DNA from: Clostridia bacterium
GTDB lineage: Bacteria > Bacillota > Clostridia > Christensenellales > CAG-138
Direction of reading: 5' to 3'
DNA length: 64,000 bases
Assembly (NCBI GenBank): GCA_017394835.1
Contig: JAFPXD010000062.1
Location: 11,369-75,368, forward strand
Below, in pieces: positions 8,877-47,348 of this stretch (its first letter is position 1; every line of letters starts with the position of its first letter). The notes under the pieces were generated by a model that worked only from the letters and a program-made list of their open reading frames with translations, made no database searches and had not been told where the DNA came from. Made by a program: the position numbers and the translations under genes.

Positions 8877-11669
8877 ATGAACGACATTCAGCAAAGAAAA
8901 GCGGCAAAGGATTTTGCAGCAAGATGGAAGGACAAGGGCTACGAGAAGGGCGAGAGCCAGCTTTTCTGGACGACGCTTCTGACCGACGTTTTCGGCGTGA
9001 CGAACGTCGCCGATTTCATCGAATTCGAGGATCAAGTGCATCTCGATCACACCTCGTTCATCGACGGTTACATTCCCTCAACGAAGGTGCTGATCGAGCA
9101 GAAGGGCCTCGGCAAGGACCTCAATAAGCCCATCAAACAGTCCGACGGCTCCATGCTCAACCCCTTCCAGCAGGCAAAACGCTACATAACCGAGCTGCCG
9201 CTGTCCCGCCATCCGCGTTGGGTCGTTACCTGCAACTTCGCGGAATTCTATATCTACGATATGGAGCGCCCGGGCGGCGAGCCGGAGAAGATCAAGCTCT
9301 GCGACCTTGAAAAGGAATACTACCGCCTCTCCTTCCTGACCGAGACCGAGAGCGTGCATATCCAAAGGGAGATGGAGATCTCCATCAAGGCCGGCGAGGT
9401 AGTCGGGCTCCTTTACGATGCATTCTTAAAGCAGTACGGCTCTGCCGACGCCGAAACGCTGAAGAGCCTCAACAAGCTCTGCGTCCGTCTCGTATTCTGC
9501 CTCTATGCGGAGGACGCGGGCATATTCGGCAAGCATTTGATGTTCCACGATTATCTGTCGCAATTCTCAACAAGGGAGATGCGCAAGGGTCTGACCGCCC
9601 TTTTCAAGGTGCTTGACCAGAAGCCCGAGGAGCGCGACCGCTTCCTTGCGGACGACGATCCCTTGCTTGCGGCATTCCCATACGTCAACGGCGGGCTGTT
9701 CGCCGACGAGGATATAATCATTCCCCCGTTCACTGATGAGATACGCGAGCTGCTGCTCGTTAAGGCGAGCGCGGATTTTGACTGGTCGTCCATCAGTCCC
9801 ACCATATTCGGCGCTGTGTTCGAGAGCACCCTGAACCCCGAAACACGCCGCTCCGGCGGCATGCACTATACCTCGATCGAGAACATCCACAAGGTTATCG
9901 ACCCGCTGTTTTTGGACGAGCTCAAGGCAGAGCTTGAGGAGATCTCCGCTATTCAGATAGAAAAGACGAAGACGCGCAAGCTCCGTGAGTTTCAAGCGAA
10001 GCTCGCCTCGCTCGAGTTTTTGGACCCGGCGGCAGGCAGCGGCAATTTCCTCACGGAATCCTATCTCTGCATCCGCAGGCTGGAAAACGACGTGCTCCGT
10101 CTTTTGAGCGGCGGTCAGGTGAAATTGGGCGGCGAGATAATGAGCCCGATACAGGTGAGTATTTCACAGTTCCATGGCATCGAGATAAACGACTTTGCCG
10201 TAACGGTTGCAAAGACCGCGCTTTGGATCGCCGAAAGCCAGATGATGAAGGAGACTGAGGATATCATCTATGCGAACCTCGAGTTCCTGCCCCTGAAAAC
10301 CAACGCAAATATAGTCGAGGGCAACGCCCTGCGGCTCGATTGGAACAAGGTCGTGCCGAAGGAAAGGCTGAATTATATCATGGGGAATCCACCGTTTGTG
10401 GGATCTTCTATCATGGCACAAGGGAGCCCACAAAAAGACGATGTGCATTTTGTTTTCCCCGATCTTGCCAAAAATGAAGTTCAGGATCTGGACTATGTTA
10501 CATGCTGGTATAAACTTGCTGCAGATTATATGCAGGGAAGTCGCATGGAGTGCTGCTTTGTTTCAACAAATTCCATCTGTCAAGGATCGCAGGTCCCTAT
10601 TCTTTGGAACATACTGTTAAATACGTACCAAAACCATATCAATTTTGCGTATCAAACATTCCGTTGGAATAGTGAGTCGGTGAATCAAGCAGCAGTTCAT
10701 TGCGTTATTGTAGGGTTCTCTCCCATTGAGCGAAAAGTTAAGAAGCTGTTTACAAAGGGACAAAGAGGAATAGAAGTACCAAATATCAGCCCTTATCTTA
10801 CTAATGGTTCTGATGTTTTTGTTGTAGCCACTAAGAATCCAATCTGCGACGCTCCTTCAATGAATTTCGGAAACCAGCCTAGGGATGGTGGGTTTCTTGT
10901 TATTCCTGTTGAGGAGAGAGACGAAATCCTCAAGAAAGAGCCCACTTTGGAGAAGTGGATTCGTGAGTATATAGGAGCAGTTGAATTCATCAATAACAAA
11001 AAGCGTTTTTGCCTTTGGCTAAAGCATGCCTCTCCGTCTGATATAAAGGCGAGTAAAATATTGTATTCGAAAGTTGAAGCAGTAAGGGCATTCAGACTGG
11101 ATTCGAGGGCAAAAACGACTAACGGCTATGCAAAAGTGCCACACCTTTTTGCTCAGATAACCCAACCTGAAGGAGTTGACTTTTTGCTCATTCCGCGTGT
11201 GTCATCTGAAAGAAGAAGATACATCCCTATCGGCTTTATGAGCAAAGACATCATTGCTTCTGATGCTGTTCAAATTGTTCCGGATGCATCTTTGTATCAT
11301 TTCGGAATCTTGACATCCAATATTCATATGGCATGGATGAGAACGGTTGCCGGCAGGCTAAAGAGCGACTATCGATATTCAAAGGAGGTAGTGTACAATA
11401 CTTTCCCATGGCCTAATCCGACAGTTGAGCAAAAGGCAAAGATAGAACAGACTGCTCAAATGATACTCGATGCGAGAGCAAAATACCCTGATTCATCACT
11501 TGCGGATCTTTATGATGATAACACTATGCCCAACGAGCTCAGAACCGCACATCAGAAAAACGATCGGGCAGTTTGGGAAGCTTACGGAAAAGCATGGAGC
11601 ATAAGCTCAGAAGCCGACTGCGTCGCAGAGCTCATGAAGCTGTATCAGAAGCTGACCGAGAAGGCATAA
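8877..11669 (+). CDS. MmeI-like type IIL restriction-modification enzyme (endonuclease, m6A methyltransferase and TRD)
   Basis: N-terminal ID...LIEQK nuclease motif, GMHYTS, FLDPAAGSGNF, IMGNPPF, C-terminal GRLKSDYRYS...YNTFPWP; 930 aa. Confidence 0.9.
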   Translation: MNDIQQRKAAKDFAARWKDKGYEKGESQLFWTTLLTDVFGVTNVADFIEFEDQVHLDHTSFIDGYIPSTKVLIEQKGLGKDLNKPIKQSDGSMLNPFQQAKRYITELPLSRHPRWVVTCNFAEFYIYDMERPGGEPEKIKLCDLEKEYYRLSFLTETESVHIQREMEISIKAGEVVGLLYDAFLKQYGSADAETLKSLNKLCVRLVFCLYAEDAGIFGKHLMFHDYLSQFSTREMRKGLTALFKVLDQKPEERDRFLADDDPLLAAFPYVNGGLFADEDIIIPPFTDEIRELLLVKASADFDWSSISPTIFGAVFESTLNPETRRSGGMHYTSIENIHKVIDPLFLDELKAELEEISAIQIEKTKTRKLREFQAKLASLEFLDPAAGSGNFLTESYLCIRRLENDVLRLLSGGQVKLGGEIMSPIQVSISQFHGIEINDFAVTVAKTALWIAESQMMKETEDIIYANLEFLPLKTNANIVEGNALRLDWNKVVPKERLNYIMGNPPFVGSSIMAQGSPQKDDVHFVFPDLAKNEVQDLDYVTCWYKLAADYMQGSRMECCFVSTNSICQGSQVPILWNILLNTYQNHINFAYQTFRWNSESVNQAAVHCVIVGFSPIERKVKKLFTKGQRGIEVPNISPYLTNGSDVFVVATKNPICDAPSMNFGNQPRDGGFLVIPVEERDEILKKEPTLEKWIREYIGAVEFINNKKRFCLWLKHASPSDIKASKILYSKVEAVRAFRLDSRAKTTNGYAKVPHLFAQITQPEGVDFLLIPRVSSERRRYIPIGFMSKDIIASDAVQIVPDASLYHFGILTSNIHMAWMRTVAGRLKSDYRYSKEVVYNTFPWPNPTVEQKAKIEQTAQMILDARAKYPDSSLADLYDDNTMPNELRTAHQKNDRAVWEAYGKAWSISSEADCVAELMKLYQKLTEKA

Positions 11670-13162: not shown

Positions 13163-13388
13163 GCGATTAAGGCCTCCGCACGAGCCTAAGCAGTTCACGA
13201 GTTTCGAAGAGATACCCGATTATCTTATGGTCAAGGACGTAGCGGATATTCTCAGGATCTCTGTTGCCTCAGCCTATCACTTGGTAAAGGCGGAAGGATT
13301 TCCGGTACTATTGCTTAACGGGCAGATGCGCGTTGAGAAAGAAGCTTTCATTTCATGGATGCGCGGAAAGGAGCGAAATAATGGCTAA
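13143..13388 (+). CDS. Excisionase-like HTH_17 protein 4
   Basis: IPDYLMVKDVADILRISVASAYHLV..EGFP...VEKEAFISW. Confidence 0.75.
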   Translation: MKQASVKRLRPPHEPKQFTSFEEIPDYLMVKDVADILRISVASAYHLVKAEGFPVLLLNGQMRVEKEAFISWMRGKERNNG

Positions 13389-14535
13389 GCACAAGAAAAG
13401 GGAAGACGGTCTGTACCTCAGGCAGTTTTCAACAGGGAAGAAAGCCGATGGCTCATATATCAGAAAGTCGGTTTACGCGAAAACGCAGAAGGAGCTCGAG
13501 GAAAAGTACTTCGAAGCCATTGAGGGCTATCATCTCGGGTTCAGTCACAATATCGGAAACACTACCTTTGCAAACCTTGCGGAGATCTGGCTCAACAATC
13601 AGGGAGCCGGCATGAGCGAGAAGTGGAATTACCGTCAAAAGCAGGTTATCGACAATCATCTTCTGCCGGCGATAGGTGCAGTAAAGCTCAAGGATCTCAA
13701 GGCGCTTCATCTTCAGGCGATCATAAGCGAAAAGGCGAAGGCAGGACTTGCGACTTCTACGATGAAGCAGATTAAACAGACCGCAACGAGGATCGTAGAA
13801 ATGGCTGTGAACTCCGATCTGCTGCCGAAGAACGTGTTCAGCTGCGTTAAAGTCCCGAAGCTTGAGCCGAAGGAACGTGAAGCACTGGATGAGGAGCAGA
13901 TCAAGATGGTCAACGAAACTTGGGCGACTCACTTTATGGGCTATCCGACTCTGATAATGCTCTACTGCGGGCTTCGCAGAGGTGAGATGCTTGCATTGCA
14001 GTGGAGGGACGTCGATCTTGAGCGAGATGTGATCTGCGTCACAAAGGCTGTTGAGTTTCTCTCAAACCAGACTACGATCAAACCGCCGAAATCCCGTGCC
14101 GGCAAGCGTGAAGTGCCTATTCCTCTCTTTCTCCACAACGTGTTGGAGCAGGTCAAGGGGGATCCGAATGCCGTTGTTTGCCCAAACTCTTCAGGCGGTT
14201 ACATGACGGATTCAGCTTTCAGCAGCGCATGGCATTCCTACATGAATCATCTGAACCTTATATACGGCGGCAAGAATGCCTCTCGATCAAGGCCAAAGGT
14301 CGAGGTCATAAAACAGTTCACCCCGCATATGCTGCGGCATACATACGCGACCATGCTCTATGACGCAGGCGTTGATATAAAGTCTGCACAGAAGTTTCTC
14401 GGACATGCCAACATTGAAATGACACTTTCGGTTTATACCCACCTTACAAAGTTCAAGATCGATGGGGCTATCGAGAGCCTAAATACCCATATTGCTGAAA
14501 TGGGATACAGCGGTTCTGCCGATGATGACGATTGA
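13381..14535 (+). CDS. Tyrosine integrase of the island
   Basis: CGLRRGE, PHMLRHTY, FLGH, VYTH motifs; RBS AAGGAG; close to the tRNA-derived att site. Confidence 0.93.
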   Translation: MAKHKKREDGLYLRQFSTGKKADGSYIRKSVYAKTQKELEEKYFEAIEGYHLGFSHNIGNTTFANLAEIWLNNQGAGMSEKWNYRQKQVIDNHLLPAIGAVKLKDLKALHLQAIISEKAKAGLATSTMKQIKQTATRIVEMAVNSDLLPKNVFSCVKVPKLEPKEREALDEEQIKMVNETWATHFMGYPTLIMLYCGLRRGEMLALQWRDVDLERDVICVTKAVEFLSNQTTIKPPKSRAGKREVPIPLFLHNVLEQVKGDPNAVVCPNSSGGYMTDSAFSSAWHSYMNHLNLIYGGKNASRSRPKVEVIKQFTPHMLRHTYATMLYDAGVDIKSAQKFLGHANIEMTLSVYTHLTKFKIDGAIESLNTHIAEMGYSGSADDDD

Positions 14536-16789: not shown

Positions 16790-17001
16790 AAAAAAACGAT
16801 ACTCCGTCGAGAAGAAGCTCAAAAGAATGCAGGGACAGCTCGCCCCGCAGGGACGACCCCAAGGGCAGTAAGCCTTCTGTTGAAAAGAAGCTCGAAGAAA
16901 ACAAGCGCAAGCTTGAACGCGAGAGCAAGAAGCAGAAGGACCGTACCCGCGATAAGAGCCGTTCTAAGCAGAAGTCCAAGCCCAAGACAAAGGAACGCTG
17001 A
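16790..17001 (+). pseudogene. C-terminal remnant of a PcfB/DUF3801-like ICE protein
   Basis: KPSVEKKL...KSKPKTKER basic tail typical of genes preceding virD4; no credible start. Confidence 0.4.
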
Positions 17002-17201
17002 TGGACAAACCGACCGCCAAATCCCGGGAGTGGGTATTCTTCCGTGATGAAAGCGGAAGGATCGCCTTCAACCCGAAGTGCAGCGAATGCGCCAAAGATT
17101 GCAAACAGAGTTTCAGGGCAACGCTCGTGCGCTGCCCTGTGTTTGTAAAGAGCAAGGGTAAGGACGGCAGTTTTGATAATCCCTGTGACGAGAGACGTTG
17201 A
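17001..17201 (+). CDS. Small Cys-rich ICE-associated hypothetical protein
   Basis: CSECAKDCKQSFRA...CP motif; start overlaps the upstream stop. Confidence 0.6.
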   Translation: MDKPTAKSREWVFFRDESGRIAFNPKCSECAKDCKQSFRATLVRCPVFVKSKGKDGSFDNPCDERR

Positions 17202-17249
17202 TTATCGCTTCATGTTGTGGTAGACTTATCTCGACAAATCGAAGTTTGT
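17198..17249 (+). promoter_or_regulatory. Promoter plus 16-bp palindromic site at the head of the cargo array
   Basis: TTGATT-17-(TG)TAGACT, then ACAAATCGAAGTTTGT 7 nt downstream, then RBS. Confidence 0.65.
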
Positions 17250-17263
17250 GGAGGAGTACAGCC

Positions 17264-18049
17264 ATGGATATAACACAGACCTTTTATGATAATATGGCAG
17301 CTCAGTATGACAAACTGTTCCTTGATTGGCAATCGACAACACATGAGCAAGCTTTGATCCTGAGCAAACTCTTTTCAGACAGCGGTTTCGACAAAACAGC
17401 GAGGATCCTTGATTGCGCTTGCGGGATAGGAACACAGGCAATCGGTTTGGCTGCCATTGGTTATACTGTGACCGCATCGGATATCAGTGACGGAGAGCTA
17501 ACAGAGGCTGCCGCCCGTGCCGAAAAAAACGGTGTGAATATACGTTTCATGCATGCTGATTTCTGTGCATTATCCGATACCTTTTCAGAAAAGTTTGACA
17601 TAGTGATCGCAATGGACAACGCTCTGCCGCATATGCTTACACCCGATGCTTTGGAATTCGCTGTCAGAAGCATAATCGGTCAAATAAGATCCGGCGGTAT
17701 CTTTGCGGCCAGCATCCGGGATTATGATAGTCTTTTGGCCACGAAGCCGCCGTACTCTCCGCCCTATATTCATAAGACCGATAAGGGACAGCGCGTTTCA
17801 TTCCAAACGTGGGTGTGGAACGGAGACAACTATCGGCTGACGCAGTACATCATCGATGATGAAGCTGAGCTTGGGATCAGCAAATTTGAATGCGAATACA
17901 GGGCAACGCGCAGGGACGAGCTTACGCAGAAACTTCTTGATAACGGCTGCTGTGAAGTGGTTTGGAAATTCCCTGAGGAAACAGGCTTTTATCAGCCGAT
18001 TCTCGTAGCGAGAAAACGAAAAATTCAAGTTTGTGAGGGAAACGGATGA
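17264..18049 (+). CDS. Class I SAM-dependent methyltransferase
   Basis: ILDCACGIG motif I, TASDIS, FDIVIAMDNALPH. Confidence 0.9.
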   Translation: MDITQTFYDNMAAQYDKLFLDWQSTTHEQALILSKLFSDSGFDKTARILDCACGIGTQAIGLAAIGYTVTASDISDGELTEAAARAEKNGVNIRFMHADFCALSDTFSEKFDIVIAMDNALPHMLTPDALEFAVRSIIGQIRSGGIFAASIRDYDSLLATKPPYSPPYIHKTDKGQRVSFQTWVWNGDNYRLTQYIIDDEAELGISKFECEYRATRRDELTQKLLDNGCCEVVWKFPEETGFYQPILVARKRKIQVCEGNG

Positions 18050-18534
18050 TAACTCTGCGCAAAATGACAGAAGATGAGTTTCGTGCTTTCAAAAAGTTCA
18101 GTGTCGTCGATTACGCGTCGGATCTGATGAAAGGACGAGACATGAACCCGGAGCAGGCGCTGATGGAAGCGGAAGAGGAATTCGACGCGGATCTACCCGA
18201 CGGGCTTGATACAGAATACAGCTTCATGATGAACATCGAAGACGAGAACGAGAATAGAGTTGGATGGATCTATTTCAAATACTATGCTCGTGAAGACGAC
18301 GATCAATGTTATGTGTTCCTCGAAGATCTGCTGATATTCGAATCGGAAAGAAGAAAAGGTTTTGCGTCTGCGGCAATCCATGAGATGAATATACTGGCGA
18401 AACAGGACGGCTGTTCATCAAGTGTACTCTTTGTGTGGGATCATAATCCGGAAGGGATGAGCTTGTATGAAAAATGCGGGTATGCGCCTTATTACCGTGC
18501 GGAAGGCGGAACATACATGGTGAAGGAATTGTGA
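18046..18534 (+). CDS. GNAT acetyltransferase
   Basis: ERRKGFA acetyl-CoA motif, N..GMSLYEKCGY. Confidence 0.88.
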   Translation: MITLRKMTEDEFRAFKKFSVVDYASDLMKGRDMNPEQALMEAEEEFDADLPDGLDTEYSFMMNIEDENENRVGWIYFKYYAREDDDQCYVFLEDLLIFESERRKGFASAAIHEMNILAKQDGCSSSVLFVWDHNPEGMSLYEKCGYAPYYRAEGGTYMVKEL

Positions 18535-18614
18535 TCCGACACAAAGAGATCATCAAATCCCCGTTTGTCGGGATGGACGGAGAAACAAACATTTCTGGGT
18601 TTATGGAGGTTAAA

Positions 18615-19121
18615 ATGGAACTGCATTTAGAAAAAATAACTTACCTCAACTGGCATGATGTTGAAGACCTGTGCGTGAACGAGGAGCAAAGAGATTATGT
18701 CGCGGACAACGTCTCGAGCCTTGCCCTTGCGGGCGTTATTCGCGAGGCGGGGTTCCACGTTTTCTCGTTCGGCGTATACTTGGGGGAAGAGCCGATCGGT
18801 TTTGCGATGATCGGCTACGATATCCCATTGGATACGGATGACGACGTCAACGAAAAATACTGGTTCACAAGAAGCAGCTATTTCATCTGGCGTTTTATGA
18901 TCGACAAGCGCTGGCAGGGCAAAGGCTACGGAAAGGAAGCGCTGAGGCTGCTTATCGATTTCATTCGTTCTGCACCGTGCAGAGAGGCAAAATACGCCTG
19001 GCTTTGCTATAATACGGCTAACACGGTCGCAAGGAACATGTATGCTTCGGCCGGATTCGAAGAAGTCCCCGAGGTATATGACGAAGAAGACGACGAAATG
19101 CCTGCCGTGCTAAAGCTGTAG
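18615..19121 (+). CDS. GNAT acetyltransferase (spermidine acetyltransferase-like)
   Basis: RFMIDKRWQGKGYG, N.VARNMYASAGF; RBS GGAGG. Confidence 0.88.
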   Translation: MELHLEKITYLNWHDVEDLCVNEEQRDYVADNVSSLALAGVIREAGFHVFSFGVYLGEEPIGFAMIGYDIPLDTDDDVNEKYWFTRSSYFIWRFMIDKRWQGKGYGKEALRLLIDFIRSAPCREAKYAWLCYNTANTVARNMYASAGFEEVPEVYDEEDDEMPAVLKL

Positions 19122-19229
19122 GAGTATCAGATAAATTCCCGTTTGCGGACGAAAGAATAGAAGACAAAATGATCGGCATTGGAGAGAAAACATATTTTTA
19201 AGAACGGAATGAAACAATAATGCAAGACC

Positions 19230-19277
19230 TTGACAAGTGACCTTTCGTTCACTATAATTGGTGAACGAGAGGTCACT
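19230..19277 (+). promoter_or_regulatory. Consensus promoter overlapped by an inverted-repeat operator (TetR autoregulation)
   Basis: TTGACA-17-TATAAT; agtgacctttcgttcac / gtgaacgagaggtcact flank the -10. Confidence 0.85.
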
Positions 19278-19298
19278 CTGTTATTTGCGGAGGTTATT

Positions 19299-19901
19299 AT
19301 GGCGAACGACACAAAAGAGAGAATACTGGAAGCTGCGCTTTTGATGTTTTCACAAAACGGCTATGCGGGGACAAACATTCGGGAACTCAGCGCGTCTCTC
19401 GGGCTTGTGAAGTCCGGGGTCTATAAGCATTTTGAGAGCAAGGAAGCGATCTGGAATGCGCTGCTGGATCAGATGATCGCCTATTACGCAGAGCATTTCG
19501 GTTCACCTGAGCACTTGCCGCCTGTACCGGATTCGCCGGAAGGGCTTGTCACGTTGACGATGCAGATGGTGAACTTCACCGTGCATGATGAGAAGATCGT
19601 CATGACGCGCAAGGTGCTGACGCTTGAGCAGTTCCGCGACGACCGCGCCAGAGATCTTGCCACAAAGCATTTTCTCACCGGTCTTACGGAGATGTTCACG
19701 CACATCTTTTCAGGCATGATGGACAAGGGATCGCTCCGCCGTGACGATCCCGCCATGCTGGCCTTTGCCTATACTGCGCCGATCTCCGCTCTGATCCATT
19801 TATGCGACCGTGAGCCGGAGAAGACGGATGAGGCCATGGCACAGGTCGAAGCGTTCAGCCGATACTATATCAAGACATACGGGGTGACAGACAATGCATA
19901 A
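19299..19901 (+). CDS. TetR/AcrR family regulator
   Basis: TKERILEAALLMFSQNGYAGTNIREL...GVYKHFESKE. Confidence 0.92.
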   Translation: MANDTKERILEAALLMFSQNGYAGTNIRELSASLGLVKSGVYKHFESKEAIWNALLDQMIAYYAEHFGSPEHLPPVPDSPEGLVTLTMQMVNFTVHDEKIVMTRKVLTLEQFRDDRARDLATKHFLTGLTEMFTHIFSGMMDKGSLRRDDPAMLAFAYTAPISALIHLCDREPEKTDEAMAQVEAFSRYYIKTYGVTDNA

Positions 19902-20391
19902 AAAGGCGCTTGTCGTGATCGACATTCAAAACGACATCACAAAACACTATCGGGATATCATTGACAAGCTCAACGCCGCCATTGACTGGGCAGCGGAACG
20001 GGAGATGGACGTCGTTTACATCAAGCACAACAACCTCTCCCCCGGCACCCGGACCTTCAAGCCTGACTCAAAAGGCGCGGAGCTTGTGCCGGAATTGAAG
20101 ATCGTGTCGAATAAGGTCTTTGTCAAGACAAAGGCCAACGCGCTGACGAGCGAGGAGTTTTCCGCGTATATCCGGGAAAACGGGATCGATGAGTTTTTCA
20201 TCTCCGGAGCGGACGCCACCGGCTGCGTGAAATCCACCTGCTTTAATATGACGAAAGCCGGGTACGCCGTCCACGTCATCTCCGATTGCGTTACCAGTTA
20301 CGATCCGAAGAAGCTGCCGGAAATGCTCAGCTATTATGCGGACAAAGGCTGTGAGGTCAGAACATTGGAGGAGTATCGAAACGATGTTTGA
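19894..20391 (+). CDS. Isochorismatase-family cysteine hydrolase
   Basis: ALVVIDIQND, catalytic Lys, GADATGCVKST. Confidence 0.88.
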   Translation: MHKKALVVIDIQNDITKHYRDIIDKLNAAIDWAAEREMDVVYIKHNNLSPGTRTFKPDSKGAELVPELKIVSNKVFVKTKANALTSEEFSAYIRENGIDEFFISGADATGCVKSTCFNMTKAGYAVHVISDCVTSYDPKKLPEMLSYYADKGCEVRTLEEYRNDV

Positions 20392-21541
20392 TTTGGATCG
20401 TTATTTGAATGCTTTGATCCTGTCCTGCCGGACAGCCTTCGGTGATCGGCTGCTGTATGTGGGGCTGCAGGGCAGCCAGCTGCGCGGAGAAGCTCACGAA
20501 GGCAGCGATATTGATGTGATGGTGATCCTGGATCGGTTTTCTGTTCAGGACATGGATCGGTATCGGGAGATCCTGAATAGGATCGGTTTCTATGAGAGCT
20601 CCTGCGGGTTTATCTGCGGCAGAGACGAGCTGCTTCGCTGGAATCCGCTGGAGGTCTGCCAGCTGCGTCATACGACAAAAGACCTTTTTGGCGATTTGAC
20701 GGATTATCTTCCGCTCGCGGCACGGGAGGACGAAGTCAACTATGTCAAGCTCAGTTTGGGGAATCTGTACCATGAGCTCTGCCATCGCTATATCCATGCA
20801 GACAGAGATAAAAACATCGCGAAGTTCCGCGGCGCCTGCAAAGGAGTGTTTTTCCTGATGCAGAATCTGCACTATCTTGAGACCGGCCATTTTATCCTCA
20901 CAAAAAAGGAACTCAAGGCGGCTGTTTCGGCGGAAGACCGGCGGGTGCTGGAGCTTACCGAGCTGCCGGACGGATTTGATTTCGATCAGGCGTTTTCCGT
21001 CCTGTTTGCCTGGTGCCAATCGGCTTTTCTGCGTGTGGAACAACTCGCGAAAAAAGGATCCGCTTTCCCCCGATGGAATACAAGTGAGGCTTTACAGTTT
21101 TTAAAAGCGGATACATCGGATGCCTTGACATTGAACGGAATTTCAAGGCGTGCATTTGACAGCGATGTTCTCTTAGGCGGGCCGTCGGCAGGAGGTCCGC
21201 CCGGGTATGCGTCGGTTTCATTTCATACGGAGATGGCAAGACAAGGGCATCTCTTCAAATTGACAGATGAAGGCCTGATCGTCGGCGGAGCGATTCTGTT
21301 TTTGCAGGGAGACGCGCTGAACGTCGGCAGGATCTTTGTTGCGCCGGAGCATTTCCGTAAGGGTTACGGAGCTTTTATGATGCGGGAAATAGAATCAATG
21401 TTTCCCGAAGTAAAAGAGTTTACCCTGGACACACCCGACTGGAATAGCAGAACAAATTCATTTTATACAAAGCTGGGATATACGGAAATAAAACGGGACA
21501 GTAGTTTGGTATATTATTCAAAGAGAAAAGCGGATGGATAG
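20384..21541 (+). CDS. Nucleotidyltransferase-domain / GNAT fusion protein
   Basis: LQGSQLRGE..EGSDIDV (Pol-beta NTase) at the N-terminus; HFRKGYG..N.FYTKLGY GNAT at the C-terminus. Confidence 0.8.
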   Translation: MFDLDRYLNALILSCRTAFGDRLLYVGLQGSQLRGEAHEGSDIDVMVILDRFSVQDMDRYREILNRIGFYESSCGFICGRDELLRWNPLEVCQLRHTTKDLFGDLTDYLPLAAREDEVNYVKLSLGNLYHELCHRYIHADRDKNIAKFRGACKGVFFLMQNLHYLETGHFILTKKELKAAVSAEDRRVLELTELPDGFDFDQAFSVLFAWCQSAFLRVEQLAKKGSAFPRWNTSEALQFLKADTSDALTLNGISRRAFDSDVLLGGPSAGGPPGYASVSFHTEMARQGHLFKLTDEGLIVGGAILFLQGDALNVGRIFVAPEHFRKGYGAFMMREIESMFPEVKEFTLDTPDWNSRTNSFYTKLGYTEIKRDSSLVYYSKRKADG

Positions 21542-21556
21542 TGAGGTCATGAAATA

Positions 21557-21637
21557 ATGCGTATCTATGTTGATTTTGACGATTGCCTGTGCGAAACGGC
21601 AATAAGAATTCAAGTTTATCGAGCTCGTTCATTATAG
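21557..21637 (+). pseudogene. 5' stub of a HAD-family phosphatase gene, truncated at the repeat site
   Basis: MRIYVDFDDCLCETA (HAD motif I) with RBS, then runs into the site at 21604 and stops. Confidence 0.6.
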
Positions 21638-21668
21638 AATTAAAACGATCTGCTGAGGAGACCAGACA

Positions 21669-22664
21669 ATGAAGATAAAGTTCAATACAGAAACATTGCA
21701 GCCAATGTCGCAGTGGTTGATAAATAGAAAAAGCCATGGATACGGCGATGAAAAGGAACTGAGGGCTATTTTAAGCCTTCCGGATTATAAAGTGGAATTT
21801 GACAGATATTCCGATCCGTCCCTTCCCGTCTGCGGTATCAGTTTTGAAGAAGCGGTGGACTTCTTTATGAATTTTGATAAAAAGGACTTTGAAAACCCCC
21901 GGCTGCATTATAAAAAAGATTCTTTTACGGCATTTTATAACGAAATCGAGCAGCGGATGAAAATGATAGGCAGATTTACCGCACTCGACGCAGAAGATCT
22001 CAAGCTAATGGAAACGCTTCTGCAAAACGGTCTGCCCGATCGTATGACCGACGAGGTGCAGGAGTTAAACATAATCCTGATAATATCGATCGGCAATTCA
22101 ATGGGATGGCCGTACGGTCATTTCATCGATTACGACGCGGCTAATCTCGATCTGTTTGAAAGCAAGGACGATTTTCTGCATCTTACCGCGCACGAAATAC
22201 ACCATTTGCTTGCGGGGCAAATCCTGTTTCCCGACGGTATTACGCCTCAGGATCTGTTTTTACAGAATTTCGCATACGAAGGTCTTGCCGTACATTACTG
22301 CAACAATCTGGCCACAGTAAACAAAACGGCAAAATACGCGGGACCTGCTTATATGATGGATAAAGACGACATGGCTTTTTATGGATCCCACTTTGATGAA
22401 ATATTCAACATGATCCGGGAAGATCATAAAGCCTGCGCTGCAAAAACTTTTGACGAGGTAAAAGACATCGTATCAAAATACGAGCAGTTTGAGTTTATGG
22501 GAAAAGGTATAAGGCAGTATCCAACCTATTATTTCGGCTGTTATATGTGGGGCTTAGTCGACCTGTACTATGGAAAAGAAGAATTATACAGATCCTTGAG
22601 CAGTCCGGGGAGGTTCGTGGAACTATATAACGCTATAGCGGACAAGAAATATTCGTTTTATTAG
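21669..22664 (+). CDS. Putative Zn-dependent protease (HExxH)
   Basis: AHEIHH...YEGLA zincin motifs. Confidence 0.7.
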   Translation: MKIKFNTETLQPMSQWLINRKSHGYGDEKELRAILSLPDYKVEFDRYSDPSLPVCGISFEEAVDFFMNFDKKDFENPRLHYKKDSFTAFYNEIEQRMKMIGRFTALDAEDLKLMETLLQNGLPDRMTDEVQELNIILIISIGNSMGWPYGHFIDYDAANLDLFESKDDFLHLTAHEIHHLLAGQILFPDGITPQDLFLQNFAYEGLAVHYCNNLATVNKTAKYAGPAYMMDKDDMAFYGSHFDEIFNMIREDHKACAAKTFDEVKDIVSKYEQFEFMGKGIRQYPTYYFGCYMWGLVDLYYGKEELYRSLSSPGRFVELYNAIADKKYSFY

Positions 22665-22721
22665 TTTAGCAAATAGTAAAGAAAAGGATTTCAACAGTAA
22701 CCCAATGAAACATAAATCCCA

Positions 22722-22854
22722 TCTTCGATCATTCGGCGCAGAGTATATAGAGCTTGTTCCCGCTAAACCGGCTGTACGGTTTTATATCCGCATTGGGTTT
22801 GAATTCTCCCGTACGTCTTCAGACGGAGAACGAGTTTTTCGCAAGGCGTTGTAA
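22722..22854 (+). pseudogene. 3' stub of a GNAT gene
   Basis: ...GAEYIELVPAKPAVRFYIRIGFEF...KAL* resembles a GNAT C-terminus; no start. Confidence 0.5.
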
Positions 22855-23001
22855 TGAACATGCAATCATTCCATTGACAGTTTTTATCCGCACAGTATAT
22901 AATGCTTTGTGATAAGAGCCGAAGGCGCGCAGGGCGGATACGAGACCCGCGTGCGCGAAAAAGAAGGACGATACCAAACAGCCGGAAGGAGAGGCGACAA
23001 C

Positions 23002-23349
23002 GTGGACGGGATAAACGAGGATTTTTGGAACGCGATGGATGAATTGGTGAACAGTTCGGAGATAGTGATCGACAGGCCTAAGGGAACCGCGCACCCCAGG
23101 TATCCCGATTTCATCTATAAGGTGGATTACGGATACCTGAAAAACACGTCGTCCATGGACGGCGGCGGGATCGACGTATGGGTCGGGAGCGGCGAAAAAA
23201 GGGTCGACGCCGTAATGTGCATAGTCGACCTCGTCAAAAAGGATTCGGAGATCAAAATACTGATTGGATGCACCGAAGAGGAAAAGGCGATCGTTTACGA
23301 AACGCACAACGAGACGCCGTTCATGAAGGGCATTTTAATAAGCAGGTAA
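23002..23349 (+). CDS. Inorganic pyrophosphatase-like small protein
   Basis: IVIDRPKGTAHP...YKVDYGYL...DGGGIDVW; promoter TTGACA-18-TATAAT at 22874-22903. Confidence 0.8.
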   Translation: MDGINEDFWNAMDELVNSSEIVIDRPKGTAHPRYPDFIYKVDYGYLKNTSSMDGGGIDVWVGSGEKRVDAVMCIVDLVKKDSEIKILIGCTEEEKAIVYETHNETPFMKGILISR

Positions 23350-23421
23350 GCTCCCGTTTGCCGGGATGTGCTAAATACAAATAAACCTCTTTTGTCTGCC
23401 GGGGCAAGGGAGGTTTTTTCG

Positions 23422-23473
23422 TTGCCTGACACGCTACGCTGTGGTATAATCAGCTCGACAAATCGGTATTTGG
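23422..23473 (+). promoter_or_regulatory. Promoter plus 16-bp palindromic site
   Basis: TTGCCT-17-(TG)TATAAT, then ACAAATCGGTATTTGG 7 nt downstream. Confidence 0.65.
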
Positions 23474-23483
23474 AGAGCTGTTT

Positions 23484-24365
23484 ATGAAGAATGCAACAAC
23501 ATCGAAATCGAAAAAAGTTCAATTAAGCAAATTATGGTGGTATCTGCTGCTGGTGATCGCGCTGTCTGCTTTTTGCTATATCACCCTTAACGTATGGCTG
23601 CAGCCGTATTCGATCGAATACAGCGAAACGGGGAAGATGACCGCCGGCTATTTCCTATATGCGGCGATAGGACTGTTATTCTCAACCCCGACGCCCTTTT
23701 TGGCGGTTTTGATGATCTCTCTGTTCATAGAGAAAATCGGCGTCAAGCAATTGTTCCGCAACATTTTCCGCACGGAAAACAAGCTGAAGACCTTCTTGAT
23801 CACAGGCGGGTTTTGTTTGCTTGCTTTTGTTTACGCAATACTGTTCGGGACGCCCAACGGCTCTCCGTGGTATATGTTCCCTCTCGGTTTCCTGATCATG
23901 ATACCGTTTGTCGGTATCGCGGAAGAGACCGGCTGGCGGGGTTTGCTGCAGCCTGAATTGGATAAAAGAATGAAGTATCCGTTTTCGGTCCTTCTTACCG
24001 CGGCCATTTGGTTCGTCTGGCATTTTCCCGTGTTCATAGACCCGACCTCAAATCATTACGGAGACAGCGTGATCGGATTCGGGATCACGATCTTCATCTG
24101 GGCGTTTGCCTTGGCCGCGATCTATAGATCCACTAAAAGCGTGATCGCCTGTGCGCTGTATCATACGTTCATTGACGCGATCGGCGCGGTTTATGATTGG
24201 AACGCATTATTTGACGGTTTCCCGGGAAGCGTATCGGCAAACGTTTACCGCGGCGTCTGGCTTATAGCGGCTGTTGTCCTATGGATCTATGCGGATAAGA
24301 AAGAGACCGGGCCCGATAATACCGTTTTGGATCAATTGAACGGAAACCTTACGAGGGGAGCATAA
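23484..24365 (+). CDS. CPBP/Abi (CAAX) intramembrane metalloprotease
   Basis: EETGWRG, WFVWH, LYH motifs; multiple TM segments. Confidence 0.9.
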   Translation: MKNATTSKSKKVQLSKLWWYLLLVIALSAFCYITLNVWLQPYSIEYSETGKMTAGYFLYAAIGLLFSTPTPFLAVLMISLFIEKIGVKQLFRNIFRTENKLKTFLITGGFCLLAFVYAILFGTPNGSPWYMFPLGFLIMIPFVGIAEETGWRGLLQPELDKRMKYPFSVLLTAAIWFVWHFPVFIDPTSNHYGDSVIGFGITIFIWAFALAAIYRSTKSVIACALYHTFIDAIGAVYDWNALFDGFPGSVSANVYRGVWLIAAVVLWIYADKKETGPDNTVLDQLNGNLTRGA

Positions 24366-24377
24366 CGGGGAACTGAA

Positions 24378-25754
24378 ATGAAAAAGATCATCGCTGCAAT
24401 ACTTATCTCACTGACGCTGATTTCCATGGCGTCGGCCTGCACGCATAGGCCGGCGGACAACGGCGAGGCGGCGAACACCGCGGAAGCAACGCAGATCCCG
24501 ACCGCGAAACCGACGGAAGCTTCGACCGAGGCTCCGACGGAAGCTCCCACGCCCGCGCCGACGGAGGATCCCGCGGCGGCAGAAGCAAAGCGCATGGCCG
24601 CGGAGCACGGGCTTGCCGCGGATGACCTCAGGGGCGAATACGCGCTGTTCATCAGGTTCTGCGAAGCCGTGGAGGGCAACGAAGGACTCGATGAATACGG
24701 CGAGTTCGTTTACAGGATATTCCCCGTTATAGCGGACAACGCCGATCTTGTTGACGAAGAGCGTCTTTTTTCGCGTTTGAGCAGGCTCAGCATCACCGTC
24801 GAGGAGCTTGGCGAGGACGGCAACGCGGGAGAATTCGACCCATCAGACGTTTCCATACTGCTTGACAAAAGAACGACGGACAGGGACCATTACAGGGCCC
24901 CGTCCACGCTGTTCCACGAGCTTATGCACTTCCTCGATTATACGTTTGCCGGAGAGATGATTCCCATTTATCTGCTTGACGGGCGGCGCCTGACCCCCGC
25001 CGACACCGCGGAATTGAGTCCTGAGGATTTCGAGCGAAAGCTGTGCTGCGAGGATACCAGCTTCGTGACGGAGGGCGGCGCGGAGCTTTACACCTGCAAG
25101 TATTATTCCGGCACGGTGGGCAGCTACCATAAAGACTGCGGTTTTCTGACGGGTCTTGAATACCTGTACGGGGAGGATACCGTCCGCAGGCTGTTCTTCG
25201 GCTGGGATTCGGACGCTATTTTTGCCGAACTGCTTTTGGACGCGGGTTTTTCCGAGGAGGAATACGTTTCCGCCTGTGAAACGCTCAACTGGTTCTCCCG
25301 CCCGTCCGTTTACGACGAGCCCGAGACCTTCTTCGCTCCGGAGGACGTACTCATCCGCCTTTATGAATATAAGCTCGGCGGCGGCTGGAGGGAGGACGCG
25401 CGCTTTATCTACATCCTCAAGTGCCTGGACGGGATAGAGCTTCCCGATTACCTAAGGTCCGAGCACGCGGAGTTTTTGAGCACGGTGCTGTTCACCACGT
25501 GGGGCAAGTACGATCGGTTCGAGAAGGAGCTTCTGGCCTGCGCGCCGGAGGGCACGAGCCTTATGATCAAGCCTCCGGTGCCGTTCTTCCGCGGAGGGGA
25601 GCTTTATATCGGCTCTTACGCGACTATTACGGACGGCGAGACCGGTAAAGACGTTTCGGGAGTGCTGATCTTCGATTTTGATTTCGATCAGAATAAACCG
25701 TTGAGCTGCGAGTTTACGAATACCGAAGAGGTGTTTGAACGGTATTTCGGGTAG
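24378..25754 (+). CDS. Lipoprotein with Pro/Thr linker and HExxH motif
   Basis: Lipobox ASAC, PTEA/PTPAPT linker, FHELMH...TEGGAE. Confidence 0.7.
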   Translation: MKKIIAAILISLTLISMASACTHRPADNGEAANTAEATQIPTAKPTEASTEAPTEAPTPAPTEDPAAAEAKRMAAEHGLAADDLRGEYALFIRFCEAVEGNEGLDEYGEFVYRIFPVIADNADLVDEERLFSRLSRLSITVEELGEDGNAGEFDPSDVSILLDKRTTDRDHYRAPSTLFHELMHFLDYTFAGEMIPIYLLDGRRLTPADTAELSPEDFERKLCCEDTSFVTEGGAELYTCKYYSGTVGSYHKDCGFLTGLEYLYGEDTVRRLFFGWDSDAIFAELLLDAGFSEEEYVSACETLNWFSRPSVYDEPETFFAPEDVLIRLYEYKLGGGWREDARFIYILKCLDGIELPDYLRSEHAEFLSTVLFTTWGKYDRFEKELLACAPEGTSLMIKPPVPFFRGGELYIGSYATITDGETGKDVSGVLIFDFDFDQNKPLSCEFTNTEEVFERYFG

Positions 25755-25759
25755 GTCAT

Positions 25760-26849
25760 ACGGATATGCTCGCCGCTTCATTTCGTTTGGTGCGAAAACA
25801 GCTTGAAGTGCATACTGGTCTTTCTCGGACTGTATGCTTTCGGCATACTCCTCTATCTCGGAAGCAGGGGCAATACCCGTGACGGCGAGGAGCACGGCTC
25901 GGCCAAATGGGGCACTCCGCAGGAGCTCAACAAGGAGCTGAAGCAGAAAACGAACTTCCCGCTCTCGAAGGAGATACGCTTGGGGATGGACACGCATAAG
26001 CACAGGCGAAACCTTAACGTGTTCGTTCTCGGCGGCTCCGGTGCGGGCAAAACGAGGTTCGTTGCTTTGCCGAACATTTTGGAAGCAAACTGCAGCTACG
26101 TTATTACCGACCCGAAGGGAGAGATACTCGCCAACACCGGCTACTTCCTCAAGGAACACGGTTACGACGTTCATGTGTTCAACCTTGTCGATTTCAATGC
26201 CTCGGATGGGTATAACCCATTTAGGTATCTGCGGGATGACAAGGACGTGCTGAAGCTCATAACCAACCTCATTCGGAACACCACGCCGAAGACCGCGGGC
26301 AACTCCGATCCCTTCTGGGAGAAGGCGGAAACGGCTTTGCTGGAAGCACTGATGTTCTATCTTATGTACGAGGCCCCTCCCGAGGAGCAGAACTTCGGTA
26401 TGATAATGAAGATGATCTCCTACGCCGACGTCCGCGAGGAGGATTCCGCTCATATCTCACCGTTGGATCTCTTATTCCAACAGCTGAGTTATCAGAGCCC
26501 CGGACATATCGCGGCAAAGCAGTACGCGGTGTATAAGCAGGCAGCAGGCAAAACGGCAAAGAGCATAAACATATCGCTCGCCGTAAGGCTCGCCGCTTTC
26601 AACATGAAGCAGCTGCAGAGGATCACCAATACCGATAATATGGACTTCGGCAGTCTGGGAGAAAAGAAGACCGCTATCTTCGCGGTCATTCCCGATAACG
26701 ATACCTCTCTCTCATACCTTGTCGGTATGCTCTATACGCAGATCATACAGGAGCTCTACTACATTGCCGACCACAAGTATCAAGACGCGCTGCCCGTGCA
26801 CGTCCGTTTTGTCCTCGACGAGTTTGCGAATGTGAACCCCTTATTTTGA
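25760..26849 (+). pseudogene. virD4: VirD4/TraG type IV coupling protein, truncated at both ends
   Basis: EEHGSAKWG, GGSGAGKT Walker A, DPFW, ends at LDEFANV; N-terminal TM region and C-terminal part missing. Confidence 0.85.
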
Positions 26850-27716: not shown

Positions 27717-28067
27717 ATGATGTTAGAGTTGACCTATCACTGGGAGGGTGATTACTTGATTCCTGATCTGGAGCCCCCGGAGGCCCCGAAGATCGGCAAG
27801 TACGGAACCCTGCGCCACAAGTACCTGCGGAACAATCACCGGGGAATCTTCGACGGGATGCTCCTGGAGGGAAGTCTGAACCCCCATCTGGAGCAGATCG
27901 ACCGGCAGGCCAACGAGATGATGGAGCGCTTGACGGCGCAAATGGCCCAGGCCGAGGGCGTCACTGAGCAGCTCAAGGCCCAGGATCAAATGGCTTGGGT
28001 CGCAGCTATGAACAGTATCAAGAACCGGGCGGAAGAGATCGTGCTGCACGATCTGATCTTCGCATGA
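27717..28067 (+). CDS. tnpV: TnpV family protein (Tn4451-like mobilisable elements)
   Basis: GDYLIPDL..IGKYG...EGVTEQLKAQDQMAWVAAMNSIKNRAEEIV signature. Confidence 0.88.
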   Translation: MMLELTYHWEGDYLIPDLEPPEAPKIGKYGTLRHKYLRNNHRGIFDGMLLEGSLNPHLEQIDRQANEMMERLTAQMAQAEGVTEQLKAQDQMAWVAAMNSIKNRAEEIVLHDLIFA

Positions 28068-47308: not shown

Positions 47309-47348
47309 CGTTGATTATCGCTTCATATTATGGTAAACTTATTTCGAC
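47309..47348 (+). promoter_or_regulatory. Second copy of the array-head promoter module
   Basis: 36/40 identical to 17196-17235; TTGATT-17-TAAACT. Confidence 0.75.

Follow-up and report, generated by a model that had tools for sequence, protein, structure and literature searches.

The DNA considered here is a 64-kb stretch of a Clostridia genome (the window, by which the whole stretch is meant; contig C59:11369-75368 of the source genome, G000 in this analysis), and the subject is an array at 17198-25771 of the window in which ten co-oriented, unrelated genes are punctuated by short, quasi-palindromic sites. The same sites recur in other Clostridia, with a preferred orientation to the genes beside them, and the junctions of alternative gene arrangements fall inside them. 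We put at about even the chance that the genes are exchanged as cassettes by site-specific recombination, through a recombinase acting in trans, and the layout is closest to those of integrons and of the dif modules of Acinetobacter. A dedicated recombinase, rather than general recombination, would then make the joints, presumably by way of a circular intermediate.

An earlier sequence-only reading of the window had described one recurrent 16-mer at the gene boundaries. All seven copies (17234, 18019, 18553, 19131, 21604, 23346 and 23458) and the two weaker ones (18589 and 22712) were recovered at these positions on the + strand. A stricter core, AAATNNNNGTTTG, has four matches in the window, all on the + strand and between 17236 and 19145, where 0.42 were expected from shuffled sequences and none of 100 shuffles reached four. 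The idea of a single motif had to be given up, however, as comparison within the genome and with relatives splits it into two related site types. The 3' site, with the consensus (A/T)(C/T)AAATTCCNGTTTG(T/C)CGGGA, lies at or just past a stop codon and is represented in the window at 18553, 19131 and, in degenerate form, 23346. More copies in the source genome are found at C15:135, C15:1285, C15:2716, C20:36580, C34:364 and C41:27093, and on C14 (C-numbers are contigs, G-numbers the genomes compared, L-numbers site-bearing loci, and X5-X8 metagenome runs). The 5' site, roughly ACAAATCGNNRTTTGNGGAGG, is found ahead of a GGAGG box and after either a promoter -10 box or a short linker; its copies are at 17234 and 23458, weakly at 18019 and 18589, and elsewhere in the source genome at C15:1318 and on C1. 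Where a promoter is present, the 5' site stands 6-9 nt past the -10 box and directly ahead of GGAGG.

Gene modules alternate with linker modules, a linker being either about 10-15 nt long or a terminator plus promoter, and most are of the former kind, without a promoter. In compact arrays the 3' and 5' sites are 10-15 nt apart and form a composite junction (18553-18604 in the window), while other junctions have a terminator and a promoter between the two sites (23346-23473). Profiles of the two types were built from other genomes only, with 88 contexts for the 3' site and 27 sequences for the 5' site. The top window matches of the first were at 18553 (E 9.6e-5), 19130 (E 0.0037) and 23352 (E 1.3), and those of the second at 23456 (E 0.15) and 17232 (E 0.25); the 18019 site is weak in both (E 7.6 and E 17, respectively).

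Two contigs of the source genome, C14 and C15, hold alternative arrangements around one such site. Their first 134 nt are common (the end of an ASCH-domain gene), and they then fork inside a 3' site. In C15 there follows an insert of 2.58 kb, carrying a GNAT gene and a beta-lactamase-family gene between two copies of the 3' site, after which the sequence that follows directly in C14 resumes for about 170 nt at 94%; beyond this the contigs diverge, and they must therefore represent different loci or strains. The left junction, the right junction and the empty site share only AAATTCC-N-GTTTG, a 13-bp core. The insert consists of two linker-plus-gene pairs, and in genome G203 only the GNAT cassette follows this left junction. 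The beta-lactamase-family cassette itself was found in five upstream contexts, following the GNAT gene (C15), a promoter (C1), the promoter of a conjugative element (G004:C9) and two other genes (L059, L120), and the sequences come together at the 5' site or else at the 3' site plus linker.

The strict form of the site, AAATTCCNGTTTGTCGGGA, has 19 nt, 18 of them specified, and occurs in at least 120 stretches. Among the 80 titled matches listed, 65 bear Clostridia-class labels (Lachnospiraceae, Oscillospiraceae, Ruminococcaceae, Clostridiaceae, Eubacteriales and others), one is a Selenomonas isolate, and most of the other 14 are within long open frames and seem to be chance matches. Isolates of Eubacterium pyruvativorans, Ruminococcus sp. 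and Lachnospiraceae are also among the matches. Judging by these matches, the site family is spread across class Clostridia and is not private to the source genome. With frames of at least 80 codons, the matches listed gave 110 unique contexts, 53 of which have the site no more than 45 nt past a stop codon; another 12 overlap the stop and 27 are inside long frames. Orientation could be read in the 81 contexts with room on both sides, where an open reading frame (ORF) on the same strand ends just upstream in 43, against 10 with one on the opposite strand.

Partners are exchanged at these sites: in 12 groups one right flank is joined to two to four left flanks through the same 19 nt, and in one group a single left flank is joined to four right flanks. 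In all 13 partner-swap groups the identical stretch is the site alone. The free base N (A 41, G 39, C 20 and T 10 over the 110 contexts) is uniform, tracking the right flank, in nine of the 12 same-right groups, and reads T, A, A and A in the same-left group. Since N tracks the right flank, and given the fork of C14 and C15, exchange at the 3' site is placed to the left of N, and the exchange point appears to lie within AAATTCC; at the 5' site the equivalent point would be at or just left of ACAAAT.

These contexts bear also on the proposal that the motif is a transcription-factor operator, or a chance recurrence, with no relation to gene movement. The motif is indeed quasi-palindromic, some copies (17234, 23458) stand just downstream of promoters, and a loose matrix finds it at background level genome-wide. 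Most members of the family, however, lie past stop codons and not at promoters, with 53 of the 110 contexts directly past a stop and a strand bias of 43 to 10; the junctions of alternative arrangements fall in the sites, and profiles made from other genomes pick out the window copies. An operator found at promoters only, which the sequence-only reading had named as the outcome that would count against it, is therefore not what the contexts describe, and we regard this explanation as very improbable.

The array was annotated with gene families assigned by Pfam, as follows.

17001-17201, + strand: 66-aa Cys-rich ORF, no Pfam family; accompanies the promoter slot (in G004:C9, absent from the G013:C2 element)
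17196-17230, + strand: promoter-like module, -35 and -10 boxes read by eye, preceding the first cassettes; not listed by the promoter scan
17234-17249, + strand: 5'-type site, followed by GGAGG and ATG; homology to G004:C9 (97%) stops at 17254
17264-18049, + strand: S-adenosylmethionine (SAM)-dependent methyltransferase
18019-18034, + strand: hybrid-looking site in the 3' end of the methyltransferase ORF, directly ahead of the ribosome-binding site and ATG of GNAT1
18046-18534, + strand: GNAT acetyltransferase 1 (GNAT1); a 90% identical copy in G011 is behind its own promoter
18553-18575, + strand: 3'-type site, the best window match of the 3'-site profile
18587-18604, + strand: weak 5'-type site ahead of GNAT2
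18615-19121, + strand: GNAT acetyltransferase 2 (GNAT2)
19130-19146, + strand: 3'-type site after GNAT2, the second window match of the 3'-site profile
19205-21602, + strand: multi-gene module of TetR, isochorismatase and nucleotidyltransferase (NTase)/GNAT genes plus a stub, comprising the next five entries
19230-19258: promoter of the TetR module, with a 42-nt palindrome (TetR operator palindrome)
19299-19901, + strand: TetR
19894-20391, + strand: isochorismatase-family hydrolase
20384-21541, + strand: NTase+GNAT fusion
21558-21602: stub of an NT5C-type nucleotidase, about 16 codons; full length (206 aa) in G021
21604-21619, + strand: site-like junction truncating the nucleotidase gene
21669-22664, + strand: DUF5700 putative Zn peptidase
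22708-22717, + strand: half-site (the weak copy at 22712)
22874-23349, + strand: promoter (22874-22903) and InPase-like pyrophosphatase (ORF from 22909)
23346-23368, + strand: degenerate 3'-type site overlapping the stop codon (profile E 1.3)
23383-23450, + strand: linker module with an intrinsic terminator (23383-23416) and a promoter (23422-23450)
23458-23473, + strand: 5'-type site, the best window match of the 5'-site profile
23484-24365, + strand: CAAX/Rce1-like protease
24378-25754, + strand: 458-aa protein, no family
25768-25771, + strand: right end of the array, a junction into a coupling-protein gene; no site

Pfam bears out the ten co-oriented, unrelated genes that had been read from the sequence, namely the methyltransferase, the two GNATs, TetR, the hydrolase, the NTase+GNAT fusion, DUF5700, and the InPase-like, CAAX/Rce1-like and 458-aa proteins. 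The ORF said to read through a site is that of the methyltransferase, which crosses the one at 18019. As for the gene stubs, 21558-21602 is the start of an NT5C nucleotidase, and the other candidate, a 49-aa ORF at 22705-22854, has no Pfam match. The first three genes follow the promoter-like module and have no scanned promoters of their own; 17196-17230, read by eye, is probably the promoter of the first cassettes; the later modules have promoters of their own in the scan (19230, 22874 and 23422).

Homology between the array and other genomes breaks at 17254, 18567, 21602, 23361 and 23456-23469. That of GNAT1 to G011:C27 stops after the GTTTG of the 18553 site, and that of the InPase-like gene to G011:C26 stops after CCCGTTTGC (23361), past the 23346 site. 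Homology to the CAAX gene begins at 23456-23469 in G010, G011 and G005, three genomes with three different upstream sequences. Contigs from four metagenome runs of four studies, which show the presence of arrangements and not their frequency, gave further junctions; the runs containing the array stretch are from animal gut, several of them bovine, and no RNA run contains it. Pieces of these contigs start or end at 17212-17245, 18050-18090, 18502-18599, 21565-21629, 22716/22718, 23403-23465, 24363-24386 and 25771. Further pieces listed have an end near 19074, at 19257-19258 (next to the palindrome of the TetR operator) or at 22990. One X5 contig of 1111 nt is exactly 21605-22716, the DUF5700 unit, and pieces from both X5 and X7 break at the half-site (22716/22718). 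A contig of X6 departs from the window at 23465, and one of X7 departs at 18577, into another 5' site. An X7 contig runs from 23466 straight to 18599, with a single extra letter at the join, and combines the left half of one 5' site with the right half of another. The expectation that homology would end at the sites, with different neighbours beyond, was borne out in genomes and metagenome contigs alike: it begins or breaks off at a site or no more than about 30 nt from one, and the region is, on these comparisons, a mosaic of exchangeable modules.

Not every module is a single gene. The TetR-isochorismatase-NTase/GNAT stretch and the CAAX plus 458-aa gene pair are multi-gene modules. The former is largely syntenic in G021, at 78-83% identity over the TetR and isochorismatase genes, where an extra GNAT follows TetR and a 180-aa GNAT replaces the NTase+GNAT fusion. 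The G021 operon ends in the full 206-aa NT5C-type gene, and the homology of the window stops at 21602, where the 21604 motif begins. Contig depth over 19010-21514 is about 10 times that of the neighbours in X5 and about 3-8 times in X7 and X8 (contig depths, not copy numbers), which suggests that the TetR module also sits in many other organisms or contexts. The CAAX and 458-aa pair is 93% identical in G005:C29, and the two genes can be separated: in X6 a contig begins at 24363, and CAAX has hardly any coverage. The 3' site and terminator that belong to the 458-aa cassette in G005 are gone from the window. The proposed run of cassettes is accordingly upheld as far as exchangeable, site-bounded modules go, with the corrections that some units are multi-gene, some edges are off the sites and the right end is a deletion junction.

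Several observations concern individual modules. A near copy of the 17196-17230 module lies at 47310-47345 of the window, upstream of a 479-aa gene with no Pfam family and without a full 5' site, and the roughly 30 nt ahead of it are similar to what an X6 metagenome contig has before 17196. Within the 5' part of the InPase ORF, positions 22990 and 22991 are separated by 480 other letters in an X7 contig, and X5 contigs show an alternative 5' end near 23014 in the same gene. The terminator-promoter linker, at about 23378-23472, is a multi-copy repeat in genomes of the same genus; in G013:C20 (L014 112-3540), four copies of its terminator part are 657, 660 and 2019 nt apart, between small genes. 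As regards a possible invertible promoter (inverton), the linker at 23346-23473 has weak inverted ends by eye, and no strand-changing joint is listed there in the contigs of the four metagenome runs. Some 3' sites are followed by a pair of ~20-nt direct repeats (GTAC..TTTGTACGCTCTTA-like) and then a conserved terminator, at C34:380-440 of the source genome, L039 1560-1620 and L014 720-790.

Beyond the source genome, the cargo of the sites is diverse: 1520 ORFs flank them, and the largest cluster has 11 members. Arrays in two other genera carry a methyltransferase, GNATs, DUF5714, a phosphorylase-family gene and GrpB, so the integron-like cargo of the sequence-only reading was right in kind. 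Tn916-like elements keep accessory genes beside their integrase, and one array adjoins a Tn916-type integrase; others end against housekeeping genes. A mobilisable element of about 5 kb, consisting of two small ORFs, a MobA/MobL relaxase, a GNAT and a large serine recombinase, was found in 11 loci (L104 2825-7812, L139 1970-6944 and nine more), directly past the 3' site and behind two different upstream genes. In L139, topoisomerase-like DNA follows the serine recombinase (by eye). Annotated plasmids and phages gave no meaningful match to the 61-nt composite junction, and the strict site is nearly absent from a collection of viral contigs (four stretches).

If recombination in trans is the correct reading, the array slot would be filled by mobile modules from a pool common to gut and rumen Clostridia. 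A sequence-specific recombinase encoded elsewhere would act on pairs of like sites. A linker with its gene or genes would be gained or lost when flanked by direct repeats of the site, and single modules would be swapped by two exchanges, each exchange being conservative and at a short oriented core. A wider proposal, to which we give somewhat less than even probability, is a gene-capture system common and peculiar to the Clostridia of gut and rumen, with a recombinase in trans, an oriented core of 16-20 bp, exchange in or next to AAATTCC, modules both promoterless and promoter-bearing, and a place on chromosomes as well as in the cargo slots of conjugative elements.

Searches for the enzyme did not find it. 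As the sequence-only reading had noted for the window, there is no integron integrase, here across the whole genome (93% complete), in which the best match to TIGR02249 scores 48.4 bits against a cut-off of 265 and is the ordinary integrase of the window. The recombinase expected to co-occur with the sites did not emerge, none being consistently linked to them, and clustering of the 1520 flanking ORFs gave no recurrent enzyme except that of the 11-locus mobilisable element. A Xer/dif system found no support, as the one classical dif-like candidate that a consensus pattern picked out of this incomplete genome, at C35:21829-21848, does not resemble the cassette site in its arms. The C35 sequence is intergenic, has a right arm of classical dif type and is a candidate chromosome dimer-resolution site.

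Nor did the junctions yield a conserved structure, in keeping with the absence of attC hairpins noted from the sequence. Rfam at E up to 1 gave nothing but three weak, unrelated matches upstream of the array, and RNAalifold on 25 junctions kept four pairs, with no covariation. In the long stem proposed between the left arm of the 3' site and the 5' site, 85% of cells are complementary against 85.3% in shuffles, so the inverted repeat is held by sequence conservation. Folds of single sequences were mostly no better than shuffles, with z-scores near 0 for most junctions. Small structures do occur: the sites at 17234 and 23458, placed at the predicted 5' end of the message, each form a small stem, and a small hairpin (TCCNG...CGGGA) or a GC-rich hairpin lies just past the junction. 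No description of the site or system was found in the literature, also when searched by site sequence (supplements left out).

A number of results weigh against site-specific exchange by a dedicated enzyme. The genome-wide enrichment that the sequence-only reading had proposed to look for did not appear: a weight matrix of the seven sites gave, outside the array, 17 matches at 16 bits or more, against 12.5 +/- 3.6 in ten first-order Markov shuffles, and 46 at 14 bits or more, against 52.1. With the matrix at background there, the signal is that of a low-copy family at a few loci, and the enrichment of sites is local and not genome-wide. A looser 13-nt pattern was present in 125 of 201 family genomes, with about 225 matches by hand count as compared with about 46 for a reversed control, and in 20 chosen, non-random loci only about 8 of 24 matches were intergenic sites and the rest coding; since most matches are in coding DNA, this count was dropped as evidence of spread. 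When the five tyrosine and seven serine recombinases of the source genome, the only queries used, were run by tblastn against 120 loci of 8 kb each, just 11 had any recombinase-like match, and the integrase of the window (13333-14535) has no homologue beside the other arrays fetched. Some edges do not coincide with sites, namely the left edge of the TetR module (about 19205), the boundary between CAAX and the 458-aa gene (about 24363) and the right end of the array. The intergenic space of compact arrays is little more than two sites, so intergenic breakpoints there must fall near sites in any case, and the composite junctions of about 45 nt, conserved as units, could sustain rare homologous recombination. 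Finally, no circular cassette or excision product was seen in the contig data, which report presence only.

Three site-like motifs also lie within 700 nt at C44:2090-2796 of the source genome, and one more on C53:143934; they are seemingly in coding DNA. Past three of these four, a similar stretch of about 30 nt begins no more than about 12 nt away.

Much of this would fit a different account, in which the motifs are expression signals (a leader stem by the ribosome-binding site at the 5' end and a stem past the stop codon at the 3' end) of a spreading pool of accessory genes, and modules are shuffled by general recombination through conserved intergenic stretches of 20-130 bp, without a dedicated recombinase. 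General recombination here means RecA-dependent or homology-facilitated illegitimate exchange, or slippage between short direct repeats. Such an account would explain the fixed place of 5' sites between the -10 box and GGAGG, the small stems of 17234 and 23458 at the predicted 5' end of the message, the conservation of composite junctions and of the terminator-promoter linker as wholes, the latter in several copies in the genus, the lack of a linked recombinase in the 120 loci, and the module edges off the sites; deletion between 13-bp direct repeats would also give the 'empty' form of C14 without an enzyme. It fits less well with the 13 partner-swap groups and the fork of C14 and C15, where just 13-20 bp are shared, and identity of this length is short for RecA-driven exchange. 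The junctions also lack a stable conserved fold (z mostly near 0, four RNAalifold pairs and no covariation) and match no Rfam family, and 18 exact bases kept across several families of Clostridia argue for a sequence-specific reader of RNA or DNA. We consider this account, the strongest of the rivals, possible, though less likely than not.

Another rival would have the modules be non-autonomous single-strand elements, moved in trans by an HUH enzyme (a Y1 transposase of the IS200/IS605 type, a relaxase or a Rep protein). Insertion 3' of AAATTCC, with a subterminal hairpin on the left and a module that itself ends in AAATTCC, would let tandem arrays build up. In its favour, nearly all conserved sequence is to the right of the exchange point while the left partner is variable, N goes with the right flank in nine of 12 groups, and a hairpin (TCCNG...CGGGA or GC-rich) follows the junction; the junction inside a gene at a non-site (21602) resembles insertion at a secondary target, and arrays are found on conjugative and mobilisable elements, which have a single-stranded stage. 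Against this, the hairpin would be left with a mismatch at the variable base N (A 41, G 39, C 20 and T 10 of 110), and the only Y1_Tnp gene of the genome (C2:4813-5133) was rejected as the mover, being flanked by unrelated long inverted repeats. In general, no link of the sites to a Y1 transposase or relaxase was seen, the 120 loci having been screened with tyrosine and serine recombinases only. Movement by an HUH enzyme is considered improbable. At C2:4300-5900, this IS200-like Y1 gene lies between two copies of an inverted-repeat element of about 100 nt, with the look of a REP/RAYT-type arrangement.

The source genome is 2.38 Mb in 71 contigs, with 55.6% G+C, and the array sits in it as the cargo region (17198-25771) of a decayed conjugative element, within a decayed mobile island. 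The neighbouring features of the window are these.

Upstream of the array: helix-turn-helix (HTH)/M78 gene, LexA-like gene, ImpB/UmuC-like gene, sigma factor, DUF4143 ATPase
8877-11669: MmeI-family (Type IIL) restriction-modification gene, complete, with all five MmeI domains
13333-14535: tyrosine integrase, upstream of the array
25803-26849, + strand: fragment of a type IV coupling protein, N-terminally truncated, part of the decayed conjugative element
27717-28067: TnpV, downstream of the array
From about 28.5 kb: chromosomal rhamnose-utilisation genes

The left flank of the array is 97% identical to G004:C9 up to 17254, past the first site and GGAGG, beyond which G004:C9 carries the beta-lactamase-family cassette where the window has its array. 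Homology restarts at 25770, inside the coupling-protein gene, and as this gene is intact in G004, the right end in the window is a deletion. In a related conjugative element, G013:C2 (L020 4250-4950), the coupling-protein gene is intact and the entire slot, with the 66-aa ORF, promoter and cassette, is absent; on this comparison the cargo slot is evidently an accessory insertion in its own right. There is no site at the slot-shaped gap of G013:C2, which indicates that the slot itself did not arrive by a site-based mechanism.

Cassette exchange in trans, if true, would account for the movement of small genes for detoxification, modification and possibly resistance among strains, genera and conjugative elements in animal guts; the relevant cargo includes GNAT acetyltransferases, the nucleotidyltransferase, beta-lactamase-family hydrolases and methyltransferases. 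If a dedicated enzyme exists, the system would be a Gram-positive counterpart of integrons and dif modules, and a short, sequence-defined site together with its recombinase would be a candidate recombination tool. The 19-nt joint can serve as a search key for cassettes and, since many site matches are within about 150 nt of contig ends, as a marker of fragile points in metagenome assemblies. Should the motifs instead be expression signals, they would constitute a conserved intergenic 'connector' that structures the exchange of accessory genes across several families of Clostridia.

Among known systems, non-autonomous elements of the IS200/IS605 type resemble the Clostridia modules in a short fixed left sequence, a hairpin near the left end, the lack of target duplication and action in trans. 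They differ in that the Clostridia units carry ordinary cargo, have no matching Y1 transposase in the genome and show no defined right-end hairpin.

The attC sites of integrons are structure-conserved, imperfect hairpins of about 57-141 nt with inverse core and core boxes. With integrons, and with the arrays called CALIN, the Clostridia arrays have in common their co-oriented, small and unrelated accessory genes (GNATs, methyltransferases, ASCH, GrpB and DUFs), many of them without a promoter of their own and probably read from one upstream, a site at or overlapping each stop codon, and the same cassette in different arrays. Composite junctions also present two inverted arms around a variable middle, with 85% of cells complementary. 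Unlike those of integrons, the Clostridia sites are 16-20 bp long, conserved in sequence and not in structure, and show no covariation, and there is no IntI; junctions are found at both the 3' and the 5' site, most of the conserved sequence of a site remains attached to the module downstream, a terminator and promoter are present in some linkers, and the hosts are of class Clostridia. The available part of PMC4889954 reports no complete integron in its Firmicutes genomes, in which CALIN (attC clusters without an integrase) were found; most Clostridia arrays likewise have no recombinase nearby. A shared gene-capture system, if true, would be a functional counterpart of integrons, with a sequence-defined rather than a structure-defined site, in the phylum for which that part of PMC4889954 gives no complete integron.

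The dif modules of Acinetobacter are described, in the part of PMC13141974 available, as bounded by short quasi-palindromic sites with two arms and a spacer of about 6 bp. Modules of two kinds alternate there; a pair of them can be gained or lost where the sites at its ends are in direct orientation, and a single one can be swapped by two events. The recombinase (XerC/XerD) is encoded elsewhere. The Clostridia site differs from the dif-like sequence at C35:21829-21848 of its own genome, and the Clostridia arrays, in which all genes are co-oriented, are on the chromosome and on conjugative elements and not on Rep_3 plasmids. As to the inverse orientation of dif-module sites, the 5' and 3' sites of Clostridia are both quasi-palindromes, so that their relative orientation is not fixed by sequence. 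The likeness, in layout closer than that to integrons, is in the organization of the arrays: in the Clostridia it is gene and linker modules that alternate, and the C15 insert is a run of linker-plus-gene pairs.

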